Below, piece by piece: positions 3,031 through 18,064 of a stretch of 32,000 nucleotides of DNA; within the stretch, counting starts at the first letter, position 1; each line of letters begins with the position of its first letter. Below the pieces are notes generated by a model. That model was not told where the DNA came from. It was given only the letters and a program-made list of their open reading frames with translations, and searched no databases. Source of the DNA: Nitrosopumilaceae archaeon (GTDB lineage Archaea; Thermoproteota; Nitrososphaeria; Nitrososphaerales; Nitrosopumilaceae). The position numbers were made by a program, and so were the translations under genes. The DNA lies in the NCBI GenBank assembly GCA_035527875.1, contig DATKZR010000138.1:1528-33527 (forward strand), given 5' to 3'.

Positions 3031-4178
3031 TACTGAGCAACCCCTATAGTGTTACCCACACCAATTAGCAAAACTGATTGTCCAGACTTTGTGTTATCAT
3101 GAATCATTTCATAAACCTGTGAACGCACAGTTTCTGCCTGGTTAGCAATGTCTTTAGTCATTAAAGTTATGGCCTCTTTAATTGATTGTTTAATCACAAT
3201 AGCAAGAATTGGAATGTTGTTTTTGGTTGCAATTTCTTCGATTTGGAATCTTTCAGTTCCAATACCCCCTATTGCGGCTCCAAATCCCTGAGCAGTAATT
3301 GCAGAATCCTCACCCTCCATTTTTAATGCAGCATCCACCATTATGATAATATCAGGTTTGCTTTTTGCAACTATAGTTTCTACCGCATCCCCCGGTCTTC
3401 CAACAGTAGAACCAGGACCCTCTGCTTTTAGTAAAATCAATTTTCTACCATCAAATTCTTTTTCACTAGACACGGTCTGAAATGCCATTTTCTCTTTTTT
3501 TGTATCAAGCATCATTTTCCCTACTACCATTGGTCCAATCCCATCGCCAATTGGTTGGCCCGATTTAAAAGCTGGGATAGCTTTGGTTATAGCTTCTGCC
3601 TCTTCCATGATAAAAGGTAAAATCATTTGAAGGGGTAAAATCAAAGGATAGTTATTCTGTTTTTTGGCAGTCAAATACATGTGATTAACTATCTTGAAAA
3701 TCATATGAAGTGAAGTAGCAATTTCCAAAAGTGTTATAATTTTGGTTAATTCTAATTCTCCAGTTTCGGGAGATATAGTTTTTACATGATTTCTAGAATA
3801 ATCCTCTCTTGCTCGAACAATATGCCGAACCTTTTCCACAATTCCATTTGGATCCATATCCACTGGCATTATTGTAAAGTAATCTAAAAATCGGTCAATT
3901 TTTTTTGTCGGATCTTCTCGGGGGTTCATATTTTTCTTAACATGTTCAATTAGCTCTGTTCGAGCTTCGATTCTATAGGCATCTAATTTTTTTATCGCCT
4001 TTTTAATTTCCCCAGAGGTAACTTGTAACTGAATTCTTTGCCCGTAGAAAACGAAGAGGATTATTGGGAGAATCCAAACTAACATCATAAGAGGATTTGA
4101 ATCATCACTAAAACCAAATAATTGATCAAGATCAATATTTGTAAAATCCACCATAATCTCTGCGGTCTTGGGTTCCAA
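3030..4178 (-). CDS. archaeal membrane-anchored protein of unknown function (DUF1512-like)
   Basis: 382-aa ORF. An N-terminal TM helix (LMMLVWILPIILFVFYGQRIQ) is followed by a helical region and a C-terminal alpha/beta-looking domain (GPGSTVGRPGDAVETIV...DIIIMVDAALKMEG...IGGIGTERF). Size and layout recall the archaea-only DUF1512 family; this is from memory and not searched. The start is TTG at 4178 or ATG at 4154. Confidence 0.6.
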   Translation of the reverse strand: MEPKTAEIMVDFTNIDLDQLFGFSDDSNPLMMLVWILPIILFVFYGQRIQLQVTSGEIKKAIKKLDAYRIEARTELIEHVKKNMNPREDPTKKIDRFLDYFTIMPVDMDPNGIVEKVRHIVRAREDYSRNHVKTISPETGELELTKIITLLEIATSLHMIFKIVNHMYLTAKKQNNYPLILPLQMILPFIMEEAEAITKAIPAFKSGQPIGDGIGPMVVGKMMLDTKKEKMAFQTVSSEKEFDGRKLILLKAEGPGSTVGRPGDAVETIVAKSKPDIIIMVDAALKMEGEDSAITAQGFGAAIGGIGTERFQIEEIATKNNIPILAIVIKQSIKEAITLMTKDIANQAETVRSQVYEMIHDNTKSGQSVLLIGVGNTIGVAQ

Positions 4179-4260
4179 ATTAAATCATTCGTCTAATGGA
4201 GTTAATTTTAGAACCTGAGAATTATTTTAATTCTACGAAATTGAATAAATGCTGATTGCT

Positions 4261-13395: not shown

Positions 13396-13899
13396 TTATC
13401 GACAAAGAGTAAAAAGGCAGTCCCCCCGCTTTGTGCGTAAATTTTCCAGAGAGACTATCGTAGAACGATGGTATGATTTGTTGGACAAAAAATCTATTTT
13501 GAAATTATTTTTTGGGGTTGAATATTGTAATGCACCTGTTTCATAAATTCCGTCTAAACTATTAGGAAATGGATATTCTGCAAAGTCACTTTGTACCAAT
13601 TCAACATTATTCCATCCGTTTTCAACTGCTCGTTTTCTTGCTTGATCAAGCATTTTATCAGTAATGTCAACTCCGATTAGTTTACCCTCTGGCCCGATTA
13701 TATCTAAAACTAGAGGAAAATTTAATCCAGTCCCACAACCAAGCTCCACACCAGTATCGCCCTTTGACAGTTCTAATGCATTGACTGTCATTTTTCGATA
13801 TTTTCCAATTTTAAGGCCTAGCAGACGGTAAAACTTTACGGCTAGATCATAATTTTCTGCATATTTTCTGTAAGCTACAGCAACTTTGTTTTCACTCAT
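13396..13899 (-). CDS. class I SAM-dependent methyltransferase, C-terminus possibly truncated by a frameshift
   Basis: Motif I is VELGCGTGLNF, followed by LIGVDITDKMLDQARKR and VELVQSDFAEYPF. The ORF ends only 8 codons after a C6 run (13422-13427). See the corresponding finding. Confidence 0.8.
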   Translation of the reverse strand: MSENKVAVAYRKYAENYDLAVKFYRLLGLKIGKYRKMTVNALELSKGDTGVELGCGTGLNFPLVLDIIGPEGKLIGVDITDKMLDQARKRAVENGWNNVELVQSDFAEYPFPNSLDGIYETGALQYSTPKNNFKIDFLSNKSYHRSTIVSLENLRTKRGDCLFTLCR

Positions 13900-13978: not shown

Positions 13979-14203
13979 TTATGTTTTCAACTTTTCAGCT
14001 AGTTCTTGTTTTTTTGGAACTCCTGTAAATTCTAACTTTTCATTTATCACAATACCTGGTGCTGTGTATATTGGATATTTTTCTAAATATTCTGGCTTTT
14101 CAGTTACATCAATTACTTGATAAGGTATTTTCATTTCATCAAGCATTTTTTCAACAACGCTACAGTTTGAACAACCTGGAGTTGTAAGAATCTCCACTTT
14201 CAT
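13979..14203 (-). CDS. small thioredoxin-fold (glutaredoxin-like, CxxC) protein
   Basis: MKVEILTTPGCSNCSVVEKMLDEMKIPYQVIDVTEKPEYLEKYPIYTAPGIVINEKLEFTGVPKKQELAEKLKT is 74 aa with active site CSNC and a cis-Pro context (APG). The start is trimmed to ATG at 14203. The upstream 43 codons of the track ORF overlap the YHS ORF in another frame. Confidence 0.8.
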   Translation of the reverse strand: MKVEILTTPGCSNCSVVEKMLDEMKIPYQVIDVTEKPEYLEKYPIYTAPGIVINEKLEFTGVPKKQELAEKLKT

Positions 14204-14366
14204 GATTCTTTTTTTATAAATGACTCTGGATCTGTCTGAAAAGCCCATTGGCATGTAGGACTGCAAAAATGGTATGTCGCCCCTTCGTGTTCCAATTTTG
14301 CGGATTTGGTTGCATCTATTTCCATACCGCAAACAAGATCCTTTACCAGTTCTGTTTCCCCCTCAT
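14200..14366 (-). CDS. YHS-domain small metal-binding protein; start disrupted (needs +1 G in a G5 run)
   Basis: Not in the ORF track. In the frame with codon first positions divisible by 3, 14340-14200 reads DLVCGMEIDATKSAKLEHEGATYHFCSPTCQWAFQTDPESFIKKES*. This is a full YHS/TRASH-type pattern (D.VCGM...G.tY.FCS..C...F..dPe.F). Its TGA overlaps the ATG of the Trx-fold gene (ATGA). The open frame reaches back to 14373 with no ATG/GTG/TTG. An ATG at 14366 is out of frame by one nt across GGGGG (14358-14362). Confidence 0.6.
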
Positions 14367-14368
14367 GC

Positions 14369-15463
14369 TTATTCTACCTTCAACTTGCCCCATTCAGTAA
14401 CAGCATGATTCCCTGCAGTTTCTCCTTGACCTCCATCCCAAATAGCAAATCCGATTTTGTATTCATTTCCAACTGAAAATTGCTTATCTATCATTCCAAA
14501 TCCTGCCACTTCAATATCTTCAGTAACAAGTAATCTTGAAACCTCAACAATCCATTCTCCTGCATCCGAATCATAAACACCTGCTGCAGTAAGGTCATTG
14601 TTTCCTCCCTGATTGTTGTCATCATCTCTGTAATAGTGATCCTTTAGCTGCTCAAATGGTCCTGCAAATTCATCATCTATTACATTAGGTGATTCTGTGT
14701 GGCTATCAAATGCCTTCCAGTGCCAAATATCTACAATACCTTCCCCTATGGTTCTTTGAGGGACTGTGACATGTGGAACTCCAGCTGCACCCATCGCAAT
14801 ATCAGAGTTTCCAGAAATATCAAAACCAAAAGCAATTCTGTCTGTTTCAGTTTTTCCCTCATTATTTGCATCATCATCTTGCCAACGGAGCAAGAAATAG
14901 ATCTTCTCTCCATCGTTTAATGACTTAGCTATTACCTGACGATTTTCATGAACATACACTGTTGAAAATATTACTCCAGCAACATCATTCCATTTATCAT
15001 CAATTATTCCATCAACTATAATTCCTCCATCTGATTTAGCTGAAGGTAAAATGGTTGTATCAGGTTCTAACTCCTGTGGATCTTTTACTACTAGAAATCC
15101 ATGTTGTTCATCGTGTCCTGCACCGCAAGGGACTGAACAATAATAATGAAATACTCCAGGTTTGTCAGCAACAAACTCCATCTCTGTCATCTGTCCTGGT
15201 AAAACTGGTTCGTTAATTTGATATTCATCAATGGCAATCCCATGAGGTACATCAGCTGTTGCAAGATTGAGAGTTACATGGTCTCCTTGGTTAACCTCGA
15301 TAAATTGTGGCTCAAATCCCCACTGAAAAGCAACAATATCAAAACTCTTGTCTTCCCCTGATGTTGTACCCATTGGAGTATAGTTCATCATAATATACCC
15401 AATTACAATAACTGCCACTACGCCACCAAGTACGATAGAATTTATTGCTTTTTTACTTGCCAT
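14369..15463 (-). CDS. membrane-anchored fusion protein: COX2/CuA-like cupredoxin domain + EB_dh (ethylbenzene-dehydrogenase-gamma/DOMON-like haem b) domain
   Basis: 364 aa with an N-terminal TM helix. The cupredoxin part is AFQWGFEPQFIEVNQGDHVTLNLATADVPHGIAIDEY...PGVFHYYCSVPCGAGHDEQHGFLVV, i.e. H...C-x3-C-x3-H as in CuA. The C-terminal part is DGIIDDKWNDV...AKSLNDGEKIYFLLRWQDDD...DRIAFGFDI...AMG...VDIWHWKA, which matches EB_dh family hallmarks. Confidence 0.8.
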   Translation of the reverse strand: MASKKAINSIVLGGVVAVIVIGYIMMNYTPMGTTSGEDKSFDIVAFQWGFEPQFIEVNQGDHVTLNLATADVPHGIAIDEYQINEPVLPGQMTEMEFVADKPGVFHYYCSVPCGAGHDEQHGFLVVKDPQELEPDTTILPSAKSDGGIIVDGIIDDKWNDVAGVIFSTVYVHENRQVIAKSLNDGEKIYFLLRWQDDDANNEGKTETDRIAFGFDISGNSDIAMGAAGVPHVTVPQRTIGEGIVDIWHWKAFDSHTESPNVIDDEFAGPFEQLKDHYYRDDDNNQGGNNDLTAAGVYDSDAGEWIVEVSRLLVTEDIEVAGFGMIDKQFSVGNEYKIGFAIWDGGQGETAGNHAVTEWGKLKVE

Positions 15464-16421
15464 ATTTTTCCTTCACCACATATCCTATAGCAGGTATTGC
15501 TATTAACAATACCAACATGGTCCATGGAATTGGCATGATGACATGTGCCCCCATTGTCATCTCTGGCTCTATTCCAAATAATGGCATTACTTCATTCCAT
15601 GCAAGATGAAATGGTGAACGTTCCCACCAAGGATGTCCAAAAAGTCCTAGTAAAAGAATGAATGCACCAATAGCTAACAATCCAAAACCTGTTGCTTTTT
15701 CAACTGCAACTCTTTTCTTTACCAGAGTTTGTGTTGCACTAATTCCAAGTATTGCCAATATTGCAATAAATATCAAAGGAACTGCTCGTCCAATACCGTG
15801 AATTAACCCCAGTGAACCGCCTACGACAACACTACCAGTGCCTATGATGTATGTTAACATAAAATAAAAGAATGGATTCGGGCAACCCACACCTGCATTA
15901 CCCAAAAGCAGCCCCATGAGAAGTGGTTTTAGTTTGTCGCCACGTTTTTCTATGAATTTTGGAGTACCAGCATAAGATGGCAATTTTAGATTTAGTAATT
16001 TTAATTCAGACAAACCAAATGTGAATGCTATAGATCCTGCAAAAAACCACATAACTCGTGTTGCTTGGTCTATTCCTGTATACTGTCCAAGCAATGCAAC
16101 TGCTATACCATAAGTAGTGATTGTGATGACTAGTCCTATTCCAAAAAGAACCGCTATACCTAATCCCTTTTTGTATCCTTTTCCCATGCATAGTGGAACT
16201 ATAATGAATACCATGGGCAAGGTACATGGTAGAATTATCATTGAAAGACCTGCAGCATATGCTATTAGCAACCATGAAGCATATGGCGTAGATCCTACTT
16301 CTTCTTCAACAAGTTCGACTGTAGAAAGATAAAGTATTCCGATAATAAATGCAGAAAGCAGAGCAAACAGTAACAGTATCAAAACATTTTTTCCTTTGCT
16401 AGTTGCTACGTCTTGAGTCAT
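15453..16421 (-). CDS. CcdA/DsbD-family transmembrane thiol:disulfide electron transporter-like protein
   Basis: 322 aa, polytopic. Two intramembrane Cys-Pro motifs are present: LPCTLPMV and GVGCPNPFF. It overlaps the downstream cupredoxin gene by 11 nt. Confidence 0.7.
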   Translation of the reverse strand: MTQDVATSKGKNVLILLLFALLSAFIIGILYLSTVELVEEEVGSTPYASWLLIAYAAGLSMIILPCTLPMVFIIVPLCMGKGYKKGLGIAVLFGIGLVITITTYGIAVALLGQYTGIDQATRVMWFFAGSIAFTFGLSELKLLNLKLPSYAGTPKFIEKRGDKLKPLLMGLLLGNAGVGCPNPFFYFMLTYIIGTGSVVVGGSLGLIHGIGRAVPLIFIAILAILGISATQTLVKKRVAVEKATGFGLLAIGAFILLLGLFGHPWWERSPFHLAWNEVMPLFGIEPEMTMGAHVIMPIPWTMLVLLIAIPAIGYVVKEKYGK

Positions 16422-16444
16422 ACTCTATCTCAATGTATTTTTGA

Positions 16445-16473
16445 ATTTACTCAATACTTACATTGGAGTAAAT
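16445..16473. promoter_or_regulatory. 8-bp inverted repeat over the core promoter of the minus-strand redox operon
   Basis: ATTTACTC-13 nt-GAGTAAAT lies 24-52 nt upstream of the CcdA-like ATG (16421). It overlaps the only A/T box suitably spaced to act as a TATA. Confidence 0.3.
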
Positions 16474-16493
16474 GTGGTTTATTAGTTGGTTGT

Positions 16494-16515
16494 ATTATCA
16501 TACGTGATTATCATA
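16494..16515. promoter_or_regulatory. direct repeat ATTATCATA x2 in the divergent promoter region
   Basis: ATTATCATA occurs at 16494-16502 and again at 16507-16515 (13-nt period). This is just upstream of TATAAAA (16535-16541), which sits 23-29 nt before the Met-rich gene ATG. Confidence 0.25.
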
Positions 16516-16563
16516 AAGAGAATTATTCCATTGCTATAAAAGACGAAAACAAGAAAAAACAAT

Positions 16564-16827
16564 ATGGACAAAACAATTTTGGTAGCAGTATCGATTATAG
16601 TATTTTTTGTTGGATTTGGAGTAGGTTCTGTAGTGTTTTACAATCAACCAAATATGCCCATCTTAGGTCATGGAATGACAGGTCCTATGTATAGCCCAGA
16701 AATCATGAATCAGATGATGGACGATCCACAGTTACAAGAACAAATGATAGATACTATGATGAAAAACCCGCAATTTATGAACAATCTAATGCAACACCAA
16801 GACTTTATGAAGCGGATAAATCCATAA
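16564..16827 (+). CDS. Met-rich exported/anchored small protein, putative Cu(I)-binding
   Basis: 87 aa with an N-terminal TM/signal anchor (ILVAVSIIVFFVGFGVGSVVF). The tail contains 12 Met by my count, in repeated M-x2-3-M and NPQ(F/L)M-like units: GHGMTGPMYSPEIMNQMMDDPQLQEQMIDTMMKNPQFMNNLMQHQDFM. Confidence 0.6.
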   Translation: MDKTILVAVSIIVFFVGFGVGSVVFYNQPNMPILGHGMTGPMYSPEIMNQMMDDPQLQEQMIDTMMKNPQFMNNLMQHQDFMKRINP

Positions 16828-16839
16828 ACGGATACTAAA

Positions 16840-17226
16840 TTGACCTTTAATTATACTGTAAAAACCCAAAAAAACATAGATAAAGTAATTGAGGAAATTA
16901 CATCAAAACTTTCAGAAATAAAATTTGGTGTTCTTGGAACCTTGGATTTCAAGGAAATTTTTGCAAAAAAAGGAATTGATTATCCACATGAATACAAATT
17001 ATTAGAAGTTTGTAACCCACAAGCCGCAAAACAGGCACTTGATTCTGATCCAAACATTGGATTATTACTTCCATGTACAATTGCAGTGTATGAAAAAGAT
17101 GATCAAAATTTTATCAGCTTGGCAAAACCTACAACGTTACTTGCTGTTGCATCAAACACAGCGTTAGAATCTATGGGAAAAGAAATTGAAGCAAAACTAA
17201 TTGAAGTAATTGATAATTCAAAATAA
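16840..17226 (+). CDS. DUF302 domain protein
   Basis: 128 aa with a TTG start. LEVCNPQAAKQALDSDPNIGLLLPCTIAVYEKDD is the characteristic DUF302 core. Confidence 0.85.
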   Translation: MTFNYTVKTQKNIDKVIEEITSKLSEIKFGVLGTLDFKEIFAKKGIDYPHEYKLLEVCNPQAAKQALDSDPNIGLLLPCTIAVYEKDDQNFISLAKPTTLLAVASNTALESMGKEIEAKLIEVIDNSK

Positions 17227-17488: not shown

Positions 17489-17620
17489 CTATTCCAATAC
17501 TAGGATCGTTTTTTGATACTCTGACTCACATAATGGACAAACCATAAAGTTCTCTACAATTCTCAAGGGAACAAAAATGCTATCTTTTACACAGTTTGGG
17601 CATGATGTAAATTCACTCAT
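17489..17620 (-). CDS. tiny zinc-ribbon protein (43 aa)
   Basis: Not in the ORF track. The sequence is MSEFTSCPNCVKDSIFVPLRIVENFMVCPLCESEYQKTILVLE (CxxC-x17-CxxC). It lies 40 nt downstream of the TFB-like gene on the same strand. Confidence 0.4.
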   Translation of the reverse strand: MSEFTSCPNCVKDSIFVPLRIVENFMVCPLCESEYQKTILVLE

Positions 17621-17659: not shown

Positions 17660-18064
17660 TTAGAGTCTCTTCAGACTAGCCTCAATTTCCTCAAAAACCA
17701 TCTCGTAGCATTTTCTAAGATCCTCCTCCTTTATGTGAGACACTTTTGCTATCTCTTTGAGGGTTTTTGGTTGCTCGGCAGTACGGCAAACAGTAAAGAT
17801 ACAAATCGCGACTATCAGATAAGGGGATTCGTATTTGAACGGATTTTTATCTACAAGATTTTCATGTAGTCGTTGTGCAAAATCTATTGTATCTTGATTT
17901 AATTTTAGTTCCTTCTGAAATTCCGTGTAAATACTAGTGATTTTTCCACCCATTACTATTCTGATTAACAAAGAATAGATTGTATACTGTATGTTGTTCA
18001 AACCAAATCTCTGACTCATTAAATGCAAAATCTTCCACGATAACTTCTGGGTGAATTTGGGCAA
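17660..18064 (-). CDS. TFB(TFIIB)-like cyclin-fold protein lacking the N-terminal zinc ribbon and B-reader
   Basis: 134 aa. The C-terminal 75 aa (LNQDTIDFAQRLHENLVDKN...ESPYLIVAICIFTVCRTAEQPKTLKEIAKVSHIKEEDLRKCYEMVFEEI) follow the TFIIB cyclin-repeat pattern (A..l......sP..laaA.iY.a.r.....T..eia.v..v....i.r.Y). There is no Cys-rich N-terminus. The start is TTG at 18064 or ATG 15 codons in. Confidence 0.5.
   Translation of the reverse strand: MPKFTQKLSWKILHLMSQRFGLNNIQYTIYSLLIRIVMGGKITSIYTEFQKELKLNQDTIDFAQRLHENLVDKNPFKYESPYLIVAICIFTVCRTAEQPKTLKEIAKVSHIKEEDLRKCYEMVFEEIEASLKRL

Follow-up and report, generated by a model that had tools for sequence, protein, structure and literature searches.

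A rare CuA-cupredoxin/EB_dh gene in a copy of the CcdA-YHS-thioredoxin operon of Nitrosopumilales: a candidate thiol-reductant and copper-handling module

The stretch of DNA analysed here (contig DATKZR010000138.1 of a Nitrosopumilaceae archaeon; 32,000 nucleotides (nt), hereafter the window, the numbering of which is used throughout) contains an island of six genes. Four of these, on the minus strand, encode a CcdA/DsbD-type membrane protein, a fusion of a CuA-type cupredoxin with an EB_dh domain (hereafter CupEB), a YHS domain protein and a thioredoxin-fold (Trx) protein, and two divergently oriented genes encode a methionine-rich (Met-rich) protein and a DUF302 protein. Comparison with related loci reveals that the operon CcdA-YHS-Trx is present in nearly all sampled Nitrosopumilales and exists without CupEB, and sequence relationships indicate that the CcdA-like protein of the window is a rare, island-type paralog of a gene that is common in ammonia-oxidizing archaea (AOA). 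In the reading that we favour, and hold with middling confidence, the island would encode a thiol-reductant and copper-handling module in the service of an accessory electron-transfer protein with a CuA site and a probable haem b. All six open reading frames (ORFs) are found where the original prediction, which was made from the sequence without database searches, had placed them. A hidden Markov model search against Pfam agrees with its domain assignments (CcdA, cupredoxin, EB_dh, YHS, Trx fold and DUF302), with every Pfam domain of the window proteins (DsbD_TM, Cupredoxin_1, COX2, EB_dh, YHS, Thioredoxin_3 and DUF302) exceeding its gathering score.

The triad and its island copy in Nitrosopumilales

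For the survey of core-type triads, 80 metagenome loci and several long contigs were fetched, and the window proteins were mapped onto them (fetched loci are denoted L###, and homologous proteins that were compared, P####). The core-type CcdA gene is followed by the YHS gene in 76 of the 77 evaluable loci, the Trx gene is found in 68, and both are present in 67. The genes of the triad typically overlap: in 67 of 72 loci, the stop codon of the CcdA gene and the start of the YHS gene share 4 nt, and in 53 of 60, the YHS gene runs into the Trx gene by 4, 11 or 17 nt. Nine loci contain a CcdA-YHS pair without an adjacent Trx gene. The guanine plus cytosine (GC) content of the surveyed Nitrosopumilales triad loci ranges from 30 to 43%.

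The island order CcdA-CupEB-YHS-Trx recurs in nine independent loci (L001-L006, L027, L028 and L035) and is partially represented in L007, L034 and L115, a recurrence that is far beyond chance. A CupEB gene is located downstream of the island-type CcdA in all 10 loci with readable downstream sequence (the nine full clusters and L115) and downstream of none of the approximately 68 core-type CcdA genes. Even in L115, the most divergent of the island-type loci (70% identity for CcdA and 54% for CupEB), the two genes overlap by the same 11 nt as in the window, where this overlap is exact (15453-15463). The CcdA-CupEB pair thus has co-diverged in strict co-inheritance and, given that CupEB follows every island-type CcdA, L115 included, the two genes have been inherited together since a single insertion. 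Conversely, because the triad is near-universal without CupEB, this protein cannot be the primary client of the triad. The original prediction that the CcdA-like protein might serve the cysteines of the neighbouring CuA site therefore holds only in part: CupEB, which carries the only exported Cys pair of the island, is a plausible local client, but the triad is found without CupEB in 67 of the 77 loci.

Two core-type copies located 3 kb apart were observed in a Nitrosotenuis contig (L029; 5001-6127 and 9410-10889), one consisting of genes for a CcdA of 330 amino acids (aa) and YHS without Trx, and the other of genes for a CcdA of 367 aa, YHS and Trx. A gene for a 220-aa Met-rich protein lies between the two copies, and a multicopper oxidase is encoded upstream of the first one.

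The four minus-strand genes of the window were originally considered to be translationally coupled, with the YHS ORF beginning right after the CupEB stop. Both overlaps cited for this view are exact, the 11-nt one described above and the ATGA overlap of the YHS and Trx genes at 14200-14203; at the CupEB/YHS junction, coupling is by proximity and not by overlap. Upstream, the YHS frame extends to 14373, next to a stop codon at 14374-14376, and it has no ATG, GTG or TTG codon ahead of 14325. The gene begins with ATG-GTA-AAA-GAT (MVKDLVCGM) in seven relatives, and the window codon at this position is CTG (14349-14347), 19 nt past the CupEB stop; initiation at the next ATG (14325) would eliminate the first invariant Cys. 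The CTG could be a rare start codon, a sequencing error or a sign of early gene decay.

CupEB is rare. It forms 26 clusters at 90% identity, in which all labelled members are of the Nitrosopumilaceae type, and, in a search of 1.84 billion proteins, three clusters at 50% identity, followed by a gap to E = 1e-11; 185,579 species representatives yield eight loci from seven assemblies. An exact look-up of the window CupEB sequence found no record. Each of five cultured strains has been reported to possess a single CuA-type gene (PMC13464753), from which it follows that CupEB is probably absent from these strains, the N2-producing ones included. Being rare and probably missing from the five cultured strains, CupEB is accessory and not a part of the core thaumarchaeal electron-transport chain, contrary to the suggestion that the island is a module of the core periplasmic chain.

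Predicted proteins, cofactor sites and gene neighbourhood

The CcdA-like protein matches DsbD_TM (PF02683) at residues 51-223 with 36.7 bits (cut-off 27.1; E = 3.5e-9). It has eight predicted helices, which would comprise the CcdA core plus one extra transmembrane (TM) segment at the N-terminus and another one at the C-terminus. Hydropathy and the positive-inside rule predict that the Lys-rich termini and loops face inward, and this orientation would be compatible with the inward-to-outward electron flow of CcdA/DsbD-beta. The AlphaFold2 (AF2) model has a predicted local distance difference test score (pLDDT) of 72; a profile of the family has no match among Protein Data Bank sequences. Each half of the protein contains one Pro-flanked membrane Cys, C66 in LPCTLP and C180 in GVGCPNP, and both are invariant among 49 homologs of the two paralog types, as are H208, H263, E267, H272, W275, N276, E287 and H293. 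The predicted outer-face loop of the window protein reads GHPWWERSPFHLAWNE...EPEMTMGAHVIMP. What distinguishes the island-type proteins is an extra Cys78 together with an outer loop of the Met/His kind (EPEMTMGAHxxM); position 78 is Ser in the core-type proteins, the loop of which is rich in His and Glu (EFEMDEHEHEH). About a dozen close relatives are at least 70% identical to the window protein, and over 1,000 others, of the same length and architecture, are 50-58% identical to it and represent the very common AOA paralog. One member of the family is named 'sulfite exporter TauE/SafE' by NCBI.

The closest known systems are CcdA of Bacillus and Rhodobacter, plastid CCDA and DsbD-beta, which share with the present protein the DsbD_TM match, the two Pro-flanked membrane cysteines and the association with a CxxC thioredoxin, here encoded in the same operon. 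The differences are the eight predicted helices in place of six, the conserved outer His/Glu or Met/His loop, the obligate YHS partner, the lack of an exported Trx-like acceptor nearby and the lack of c-type cytochromes to mature. Indeed, AOA genomes encode no cytochrome c homologs and few haem proteins (PMC4010524), in agreement with the early view that the CcdA-like protein has no role in cytochrome c biogenesis. Cytochrome c maturation of the System II type was accordingly rejected, given that neither c-type cytochromes nor CcsBA/ResBC are encoded in the window, and the former are missing from AOA altogether (PMC4010524). The ScsB/ScsC system of Salmonella and Proteus likewise includes a DsbD-family membrane reductase that is linked to copper, a parallel that has been drawn for AOA by Reyes et al. 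(PMC7785015); unlike ScsB, the CcdA-like protein has a single TM helix at the N-terminus instead of a periplasmic N-terminal domain, and there is no exported ScsC partner.

CupEB consists of an N-terminal membrane anchor (residues 7-25), a CuA-type cupredoxin domain (~33-127) and an EB_dh domain (~135-364), and is highly acidic and predicted to be exported. The Pfam matches are to EB_dh (PF09459; 78 bits, cut-off 33.3, E = 1.4e-21), Cupredoxin_1 (2e-7) and COX2 (9e-7). A profile of 13 homologs retrieves the CuA domains of Thermus thermophilus ba3 subunit II with E = 1e-17 and those of NosZ with 1e-12. Residues H74, C109, C113 and H117 align with H114, C149, C153 and H157 of the T. thermophilus CuA site and Q120 occupies the position of the axial Met, all five being invariant among 23 homologs. 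C109 and C113, the predicted CuA ligands, are the only cysteines of CupEB, and the island specifies no other exported Cys pair. The cupredoxin domain is well modelled by AF2, and Foldseek relates the model to ba3 subunit II (including the single TM helix), NosZ CuA and EbdC (2ivf_C), with root-mean-square deviations of 1.0-1.5 A over ~95 residues for the cupredoxin. The closest sequences are the CuA domains of Sec-dependent NosZ, with 46-52% identity over ~95 aa. CupEB thus resembles ba3 subunit II and the CuA part of clade II (Sec-dependent) NosZ in the single N-terminal TM segment and the H-x34-C-x3-C-x3-H cupredoxin motif; it differs from both in the replacement of the axial Met by the invariant Q120, the absence of a catalytic partner domain or subunit and the fusion to EB_dh. 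No CuZ/beta-propeller, oxidase subunit I, molybdenum-bis-pyranopterin guanine dinucleotide (Mo-bisPGD) alpha subunit or iron-sulfur (FeS) beta subunit is encoded near CupEB in 11 loci or anywhere in the window. An identity as nitrous oxide (N2O) reductase was rejected for lack of a CuZ domain, the existing annotation to this effect being derived solely from the CuA domain.

The EB_dh domain relates CupEB to EbdC and NxrC, with the Pfam match, a conserved WHWKA motif and the fold match to 2ivf_C in common; the score against NCBIfam TIGR03477 is 52 bits, under the cut-off of 170. An invariant H353 aligns with the haem-ligand Lys201 of EbdC and the equivalent Lys of NxrC, and some remote homologs also have His at this position. 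The region of the Met ligand contains a 13-residue insertion that leaves the alignment ambiguous between M224 and H231, both invariant, and the AF2 model has pLDDT below 50 at residues 218-286, which span these candidates. In addition to H353 and the insertion, CupEB differs from EbdC/NxrC in lacking alpha and beta subunits, in being anchored by a Sec-type signal instead of being Tat-exported, and in its isolation, with the nearest relatives outside AOA at E = 1e-11 or weaker. A role as the gamma subunit of a type II dimethyl sulfoxide (DMSO) reductase was rejected because neither the window nor 11 related loci encode the alpha or beta subunits. Taken together, these features make haem b binding plausible, and CupEB is probably a membrane-anchored electron-transfer protein with two centres, a CuA-like one with a Gln axial ligand and a probable haem b. 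As a separate observation, CupEB is split into two ORFs (238 and 121 aa) in one metagenome-assembled genome (MAG; L006, 6001-7783), where an additional gene for a 209-aa cupredoxin lies between CupEB and YHS.

The YHS protein (PF04945; 50.8 bits, E = 1.7e-13) and the Trx protein (Thioredoxin_3; 58.3 bits, E = 8e-16) are both predicted to be cytoplasmic, with no TM segment, anchor or signal detected by hydropathy, so that the division of the island proteins into cytoplasmic and exported ones is as originally envisaged. The YHS protein has three invariant cysteines (VCGM...FCxxxC), with the consensus KDxVCGM..K..GKxYxFCxxxCxWAF in 65 distinct sequences; the homolog search with the 49-aa sequence produced only five near-identical matches, an effect of the word index. 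The Trx protein is nearest to the NCBIfam families of MJ0307 and MTH895/ArsE thioredoxins, scoring under both cut-offs, and its TTPxCxNC motif is conserved in 69 distinct sequences.

On the divergent side, the island is less uniform. The expectation had been that all six genes would co-occur; the four minus-strand genes do so strictly, the Met-rich gene often, and the DUF302 gene is not conserved. The Met-rich protein of the window, which is predicted to be membrane-anchored and exported and contains no Cys, belongs, as a short representative, to a family in which the proteins are 150-240 aa long, contain ~20% Met and have no match in Pfam. A Met-rich ORF is divergent from the CcdA-like gene in 23 of 72 evaluable loci, core-type ones included (the automatic count of 25 minus two short chance ORFs). 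Furthermore, a Met/His-rich segment homologous to the 87-aa window protein is fused to the N-terminus of CupEB in 558-aa variants (P0023 and P0024; L008 323-1996 and L114 5101-6777), in which this segment also contains CPMCP and CPWCP motifs. Both observations bear out the linkage of the Met-rich gene to the island. The DUF302 protein (65.8 bits, E = 3e-18; no membrane anchor by hydropathy) is found, among 113 loci, only in L034, a contig that is 100% identical to the window, and in the unrelated bacterial L009, and is missing in the 72 loci with a readable upstream flank; being non-syntenic, it was rejected as a member of the cluster. In L009, from a Holophagales MAG, the DUF302 gene (3895-4212) is located directly upstream of a clade II nosZ-like gene.

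The control region between the divergent genes contains a tandem ATGATAATCA-CGT-ATGATAATAC motif at 16492-16514, and this repeat, of the form ATGA(T/G)AATCA N3-4 ATGAKAAT, is preserved in the equivalent region of L002, L003, L004, L035 and L060; the motif is not enriched within the window itself, and its support comes from conservation across loci. In L027, L048 and L065, the equivalent region contains the palindrome CTTTACAAnnGTAAAG instead of the tandem repeat. The repeat and the palindrome may be operators for metal-responsive regulators. The repeat does not resemble TTCSGSMTTTGWACYANT, the promoter motif linked to Cu limitation in N. viennensis. A scan for sigma-70 promoters and terminators, a bacterial model that is inapplicable to archaea, gave nothing above shuffled sequences.

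The flanks of the island vary between genomes. Genes for a multicopper oxidase and a plastocyanin-like protein flank the cluster in L001, and those for a plastocyanin-like protein and, as judged from sequence, a cation-diffusion-type transporter in L002. In L027 (SCGC AAA799-P11), the Trx gene is directly followed by a gene for an AsnC-type helix-turn-helix regulator with a TRASH domain (3811-4245, minus strand), a type that resembles the archaeal copper-responsive CopR/CopT regulators. The fused CupEB gene of L114 has a multicopper oxidase gene nearby, as well as genes for a DtxR-type regulator and a Na/H exchanger. Orthologs of the methyltransferase located downstream of the island (213 aa; 166 aa in L028) occupy the same side in L001, L003, L004, L028 and L035. 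The window copy matches only residues 1-128 of these proteins, the C-terminal 85 aa being nowhere in the window, and the break near 13516 suggests a rearrangement junction at the edge of the island.

Features of the island and its immediate surroundings (window coordinates)
Feature	Position	Strand	Product or context	Basis
CcdA/DsbD-type membrane protein gene	15453-16421	-	322 aa	ORF, Pfam
CupEB (CuA-cupredoxin::EB_dh) gene	14369-15463	-	364 aa	ORF, Pfam
YHS gene	frame 14200-14373; 14200-14349 from the conserved start position	-	~49 aa	ORF, Pfam
Trx-fold gene	13979-14203	-	74 aa, active site CSNC	ORF, Pfam
Met-rich gene	16564-16827	+	87 aa, 15% Met, N-terminal TM	ORF, hydropathy
DUF302 gene	16840-17226	+	128 aa, cytoplasmic	ORF, Pfam
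Shared divergent control region	16422-16563	none	between CcdA-like and Met-rich genes	
S-adenosylmethionine (SAM) methyltransferase remnant	13396-13899	-		Pfam methyltransferase families

The window as a whole is an ordinary low-GC segment of an archaeal chromosome that encodes TBP, a TFIIB repeat protein, class I lysyl-tRNA synthetase, radical SAM proteins of the F0 synthase type, Elp3 and PAC2. The GC content of positions 14001-16000, which coincide with the CupEB and CcdA-like genes, is 0.38-0.39 compared to ~0.33 in the flanks, with a GC skew of -0.27 and -0.16. Two minus-strand ORFs on the DUF302 side, one of 43 aa with a CPxC...CPxC zinc ribbon (17489-17620) that adjoins it and one of 134 aa with a single TFIIB cyclin repeat (17660-18064), may be small transcription factor-like genes or fragments.

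Proposed function and competing explanations

The tie of the triad to copper follows from the Met-rich partner, the metal-type residues of the outer loop, the copper proteins encoded nearby and a published copper response. Specifically, genes of the DsbD family (arCOG02398) rank among those most strongly up-regulated by N. viennensis when Cu is limiting, and for the DsbD of AOA a ScsB-like handling of Cu(I) has been suggested, with its redox partners said to be missing (PMC7785015). Trx and Dsb families have been repeatedly acquired in AOA (PMC7554672). We propose the following scheme. A rare paralogous copy of the widespread CcdA-like/YHS/Trx operon has acquired a client gene between the CcdA and YHS genes. 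The cytoplasmic CxxC thioredoxin of 74 aa would be reduced by the cellular thioredoxin reductase and would in turn reduce the Cys66/Cys180 pair of the CcdA-like protein in a two-electron step; this membrane protein would then bring reducing power to the outer face. There, the His/Glu loop of the core paralog or the Met/His loop of the island paralog might handle copper together with the anchored Met-rich protein, and the reductant would hold exported Cys ligands of copper as thiols, possibly also converting Cu(II) to Cu(I), and thus enable the loading of the binuclear CuA-type site. The YHS protein with its three cysteines might bind metal on the cytoplasmic side of the membrane, where it could donate, accept or sense it. 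CupEB would function as an electron-transfer protein with two centres, with the entire module being accessory and not part of core respiration.

In the island, the client cysteines would be C109 and C113 of CupEB, which, as the only exported Cys pair, are plausible local targets of a CcdA-type reductant by analogy to Bradyrhizobium, where the CuA cysteines of CoxB are kept reduced by TlpA prior to metallation (PMC6669012). The analogy extends to the TlpA-ScoI-PcuC system of Bradyrhizobium diazoefficiens in general, in which the bridging cysteines of CuA require reduction outside the membrane before copper insertion and would correspond to the Cys pair of CupEB; unlike that system, the cluster encodes no homologs of TlpA, Sco or PCuAC and instead has the anchored Met-rich and the cytoplasmic YHS proteins. 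A candidate for the general client of the triad is the CuA subunit II, of which each of the five cultured strains has a single one.

Several observations weigh against this scheme. No exported thioredoxin-like protein (TlpA/ResA/ScsC), Sco or PCuAC is encoded in the window and none is found consistently beside the triad, so that the CcdA-like protein would have to act directly or via unlinked partners. The YHS gene of the window lacks a canonical start codon, and the fused 558-aa CupEB variants stand alone, with no local CcdA, YHS or Trx. Haem is a putative cofactor of CupEB, the AF2 model being poor at residues 218-286 and the position of the Met ligand ambiguous. The DsbD genes of N. viennensis can be likened to the CcdA-like gene at the level of the DsbD family, and this family shows no Cu response in N. 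maritimus (Reyes et al., PMC7785015).

The most serious competitor, which we nevertheless deem unlikely, is an Scs-like island for copper stress or detoxification, in which the CcdA-like protein would feed electrons outward so that thiols and Cu(I) binders outside the cytoplasm continue to work when Cu is in excess, the Met-rich protein would sequester Cu(I), CupEB would be a Cu(I)-oxidizing or electron-sink protein, and the YHS protein would buffer cytoplasmic Cu. Met-rich motifs are a typical feature of proteins that confer Cu(I) resistance, and in other loci the cluster adjoins genes for a multicopper oxidase, a transporter that from its sequence is of the cation-diffusion type and a TRASH-type (CopR-like) regulator. 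The patchy, accessory distribution of CupEB, as well as the varying flanks and the truncated neighbour gene at 13516, which are as expected of a mobile island, fit this explanation too, as does the link of ScsB, a DsbD homolog, to copper tolerance (cited in PMC7785015). However, the near-universality of the core triad in the sampled loci is better compatible with a housekeeping role than with resistance, neither a P-type ATPase for Cu export nor an exported thioredoxin of the ScsC type is encoded in the cluster, and the DsbD family of N. viennensis is up-regulated under limitation of Cu, not excess (PMC7785015).

Somewhat more doubtful is the possibility that the CcdA-like protein is a MerT-like, thiol-based Cu(I) translocase, the Cys pair of which would move Cu(I) between the YHS protein and the outer His/Met loop with the Met-rich protein, with Trx resetting the Cys pair. 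This would account for YHS being the most constant partner (76 of 77 loci, above Trx), the start of which, in 67 of 72 loci, shares 4 nt with the end of the CcdA gene, for the nine loci in which Trx is not adjacent, and for the conserved outer-face His, Glu and Met residues that are not part of the generic description of CcdA. The DsbD_TM superfamily includes metal-ion transporters, and the TauE/SafE name given to one family member points in the same direction, as does the proposal of Reyes et al. that DsbD may bind Cu+ or import Cu (PMC7785015). However, no CcdA/DsbD family member is known to move metal, and both cysteines lie in canonical Pro-flanked CcdA motifs, with a CxxC Trx adjacent in 68 of 77 loci, as expected of plain electron transfer. 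In the boldest form of this idea, to which we assign the same low probability, the trio of Nitrosopumilales would be an unrecognized machine for thiol-based copper translocation and metallation with YHS as the chaperone, and the island copy would be specialized to load a Gln-ligated CuA/haem b protein.

Least probable, and in our assessment very unlikely, is the original idea that the island is devoted to assembly plus electron transfer within the core thaumarchaeal chain, or its variant in which a new type of N-oxide or N2O reductase has CupEB as a subunit. The pairing of CuA with a probable haem b has the architecture of an electron-transfer protein, the nearest counterparts of the CuA domain are those of Sec-dependent NosZ (46-52% identity over ~95 aa), and the N2O-reducing enzyme of AOA is not known (PMC13464753). 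Against this stand the rarity of CupEB and its probable absence from the five strains, N2-producing ones included, the lack of CuZ/beta-propeller, oxidase subunit I, Mo-bisPGD or FeS subunits nearby in the 11 loci, and the splitting of CupEB into two ORFs in one MAG.

Implications for copper protein maturation in AOA

The energy metabolism of AOA runs on copper proteins, and the transport of copper and the loading of exported sites in these organisms are largely unexplained. We found no description in the literature of a CcdA-YHS-Trx operon, of Met-rich proteins of AOA or of a CuA::EB_dh fusion. The present analysis brings to light an operon that is widespread, had not been described and has a bearing on the maturation of copper cofactors in AOA: the redox partners of DsbD have been called missing (PMC7785015), and the sampled Nitrosopumilales loci place a YHS protein and a small Trx in one translationally coupled operon with the CcdA-like protein. 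The rare island copy with its own CuA-type client represents a natural pair of client and machinery, and CupEB would be among the very few candidates for an extracytoplasmic haem protein in AOA as well as a naturally occurring CuA site in which Gln is the axial ligand.

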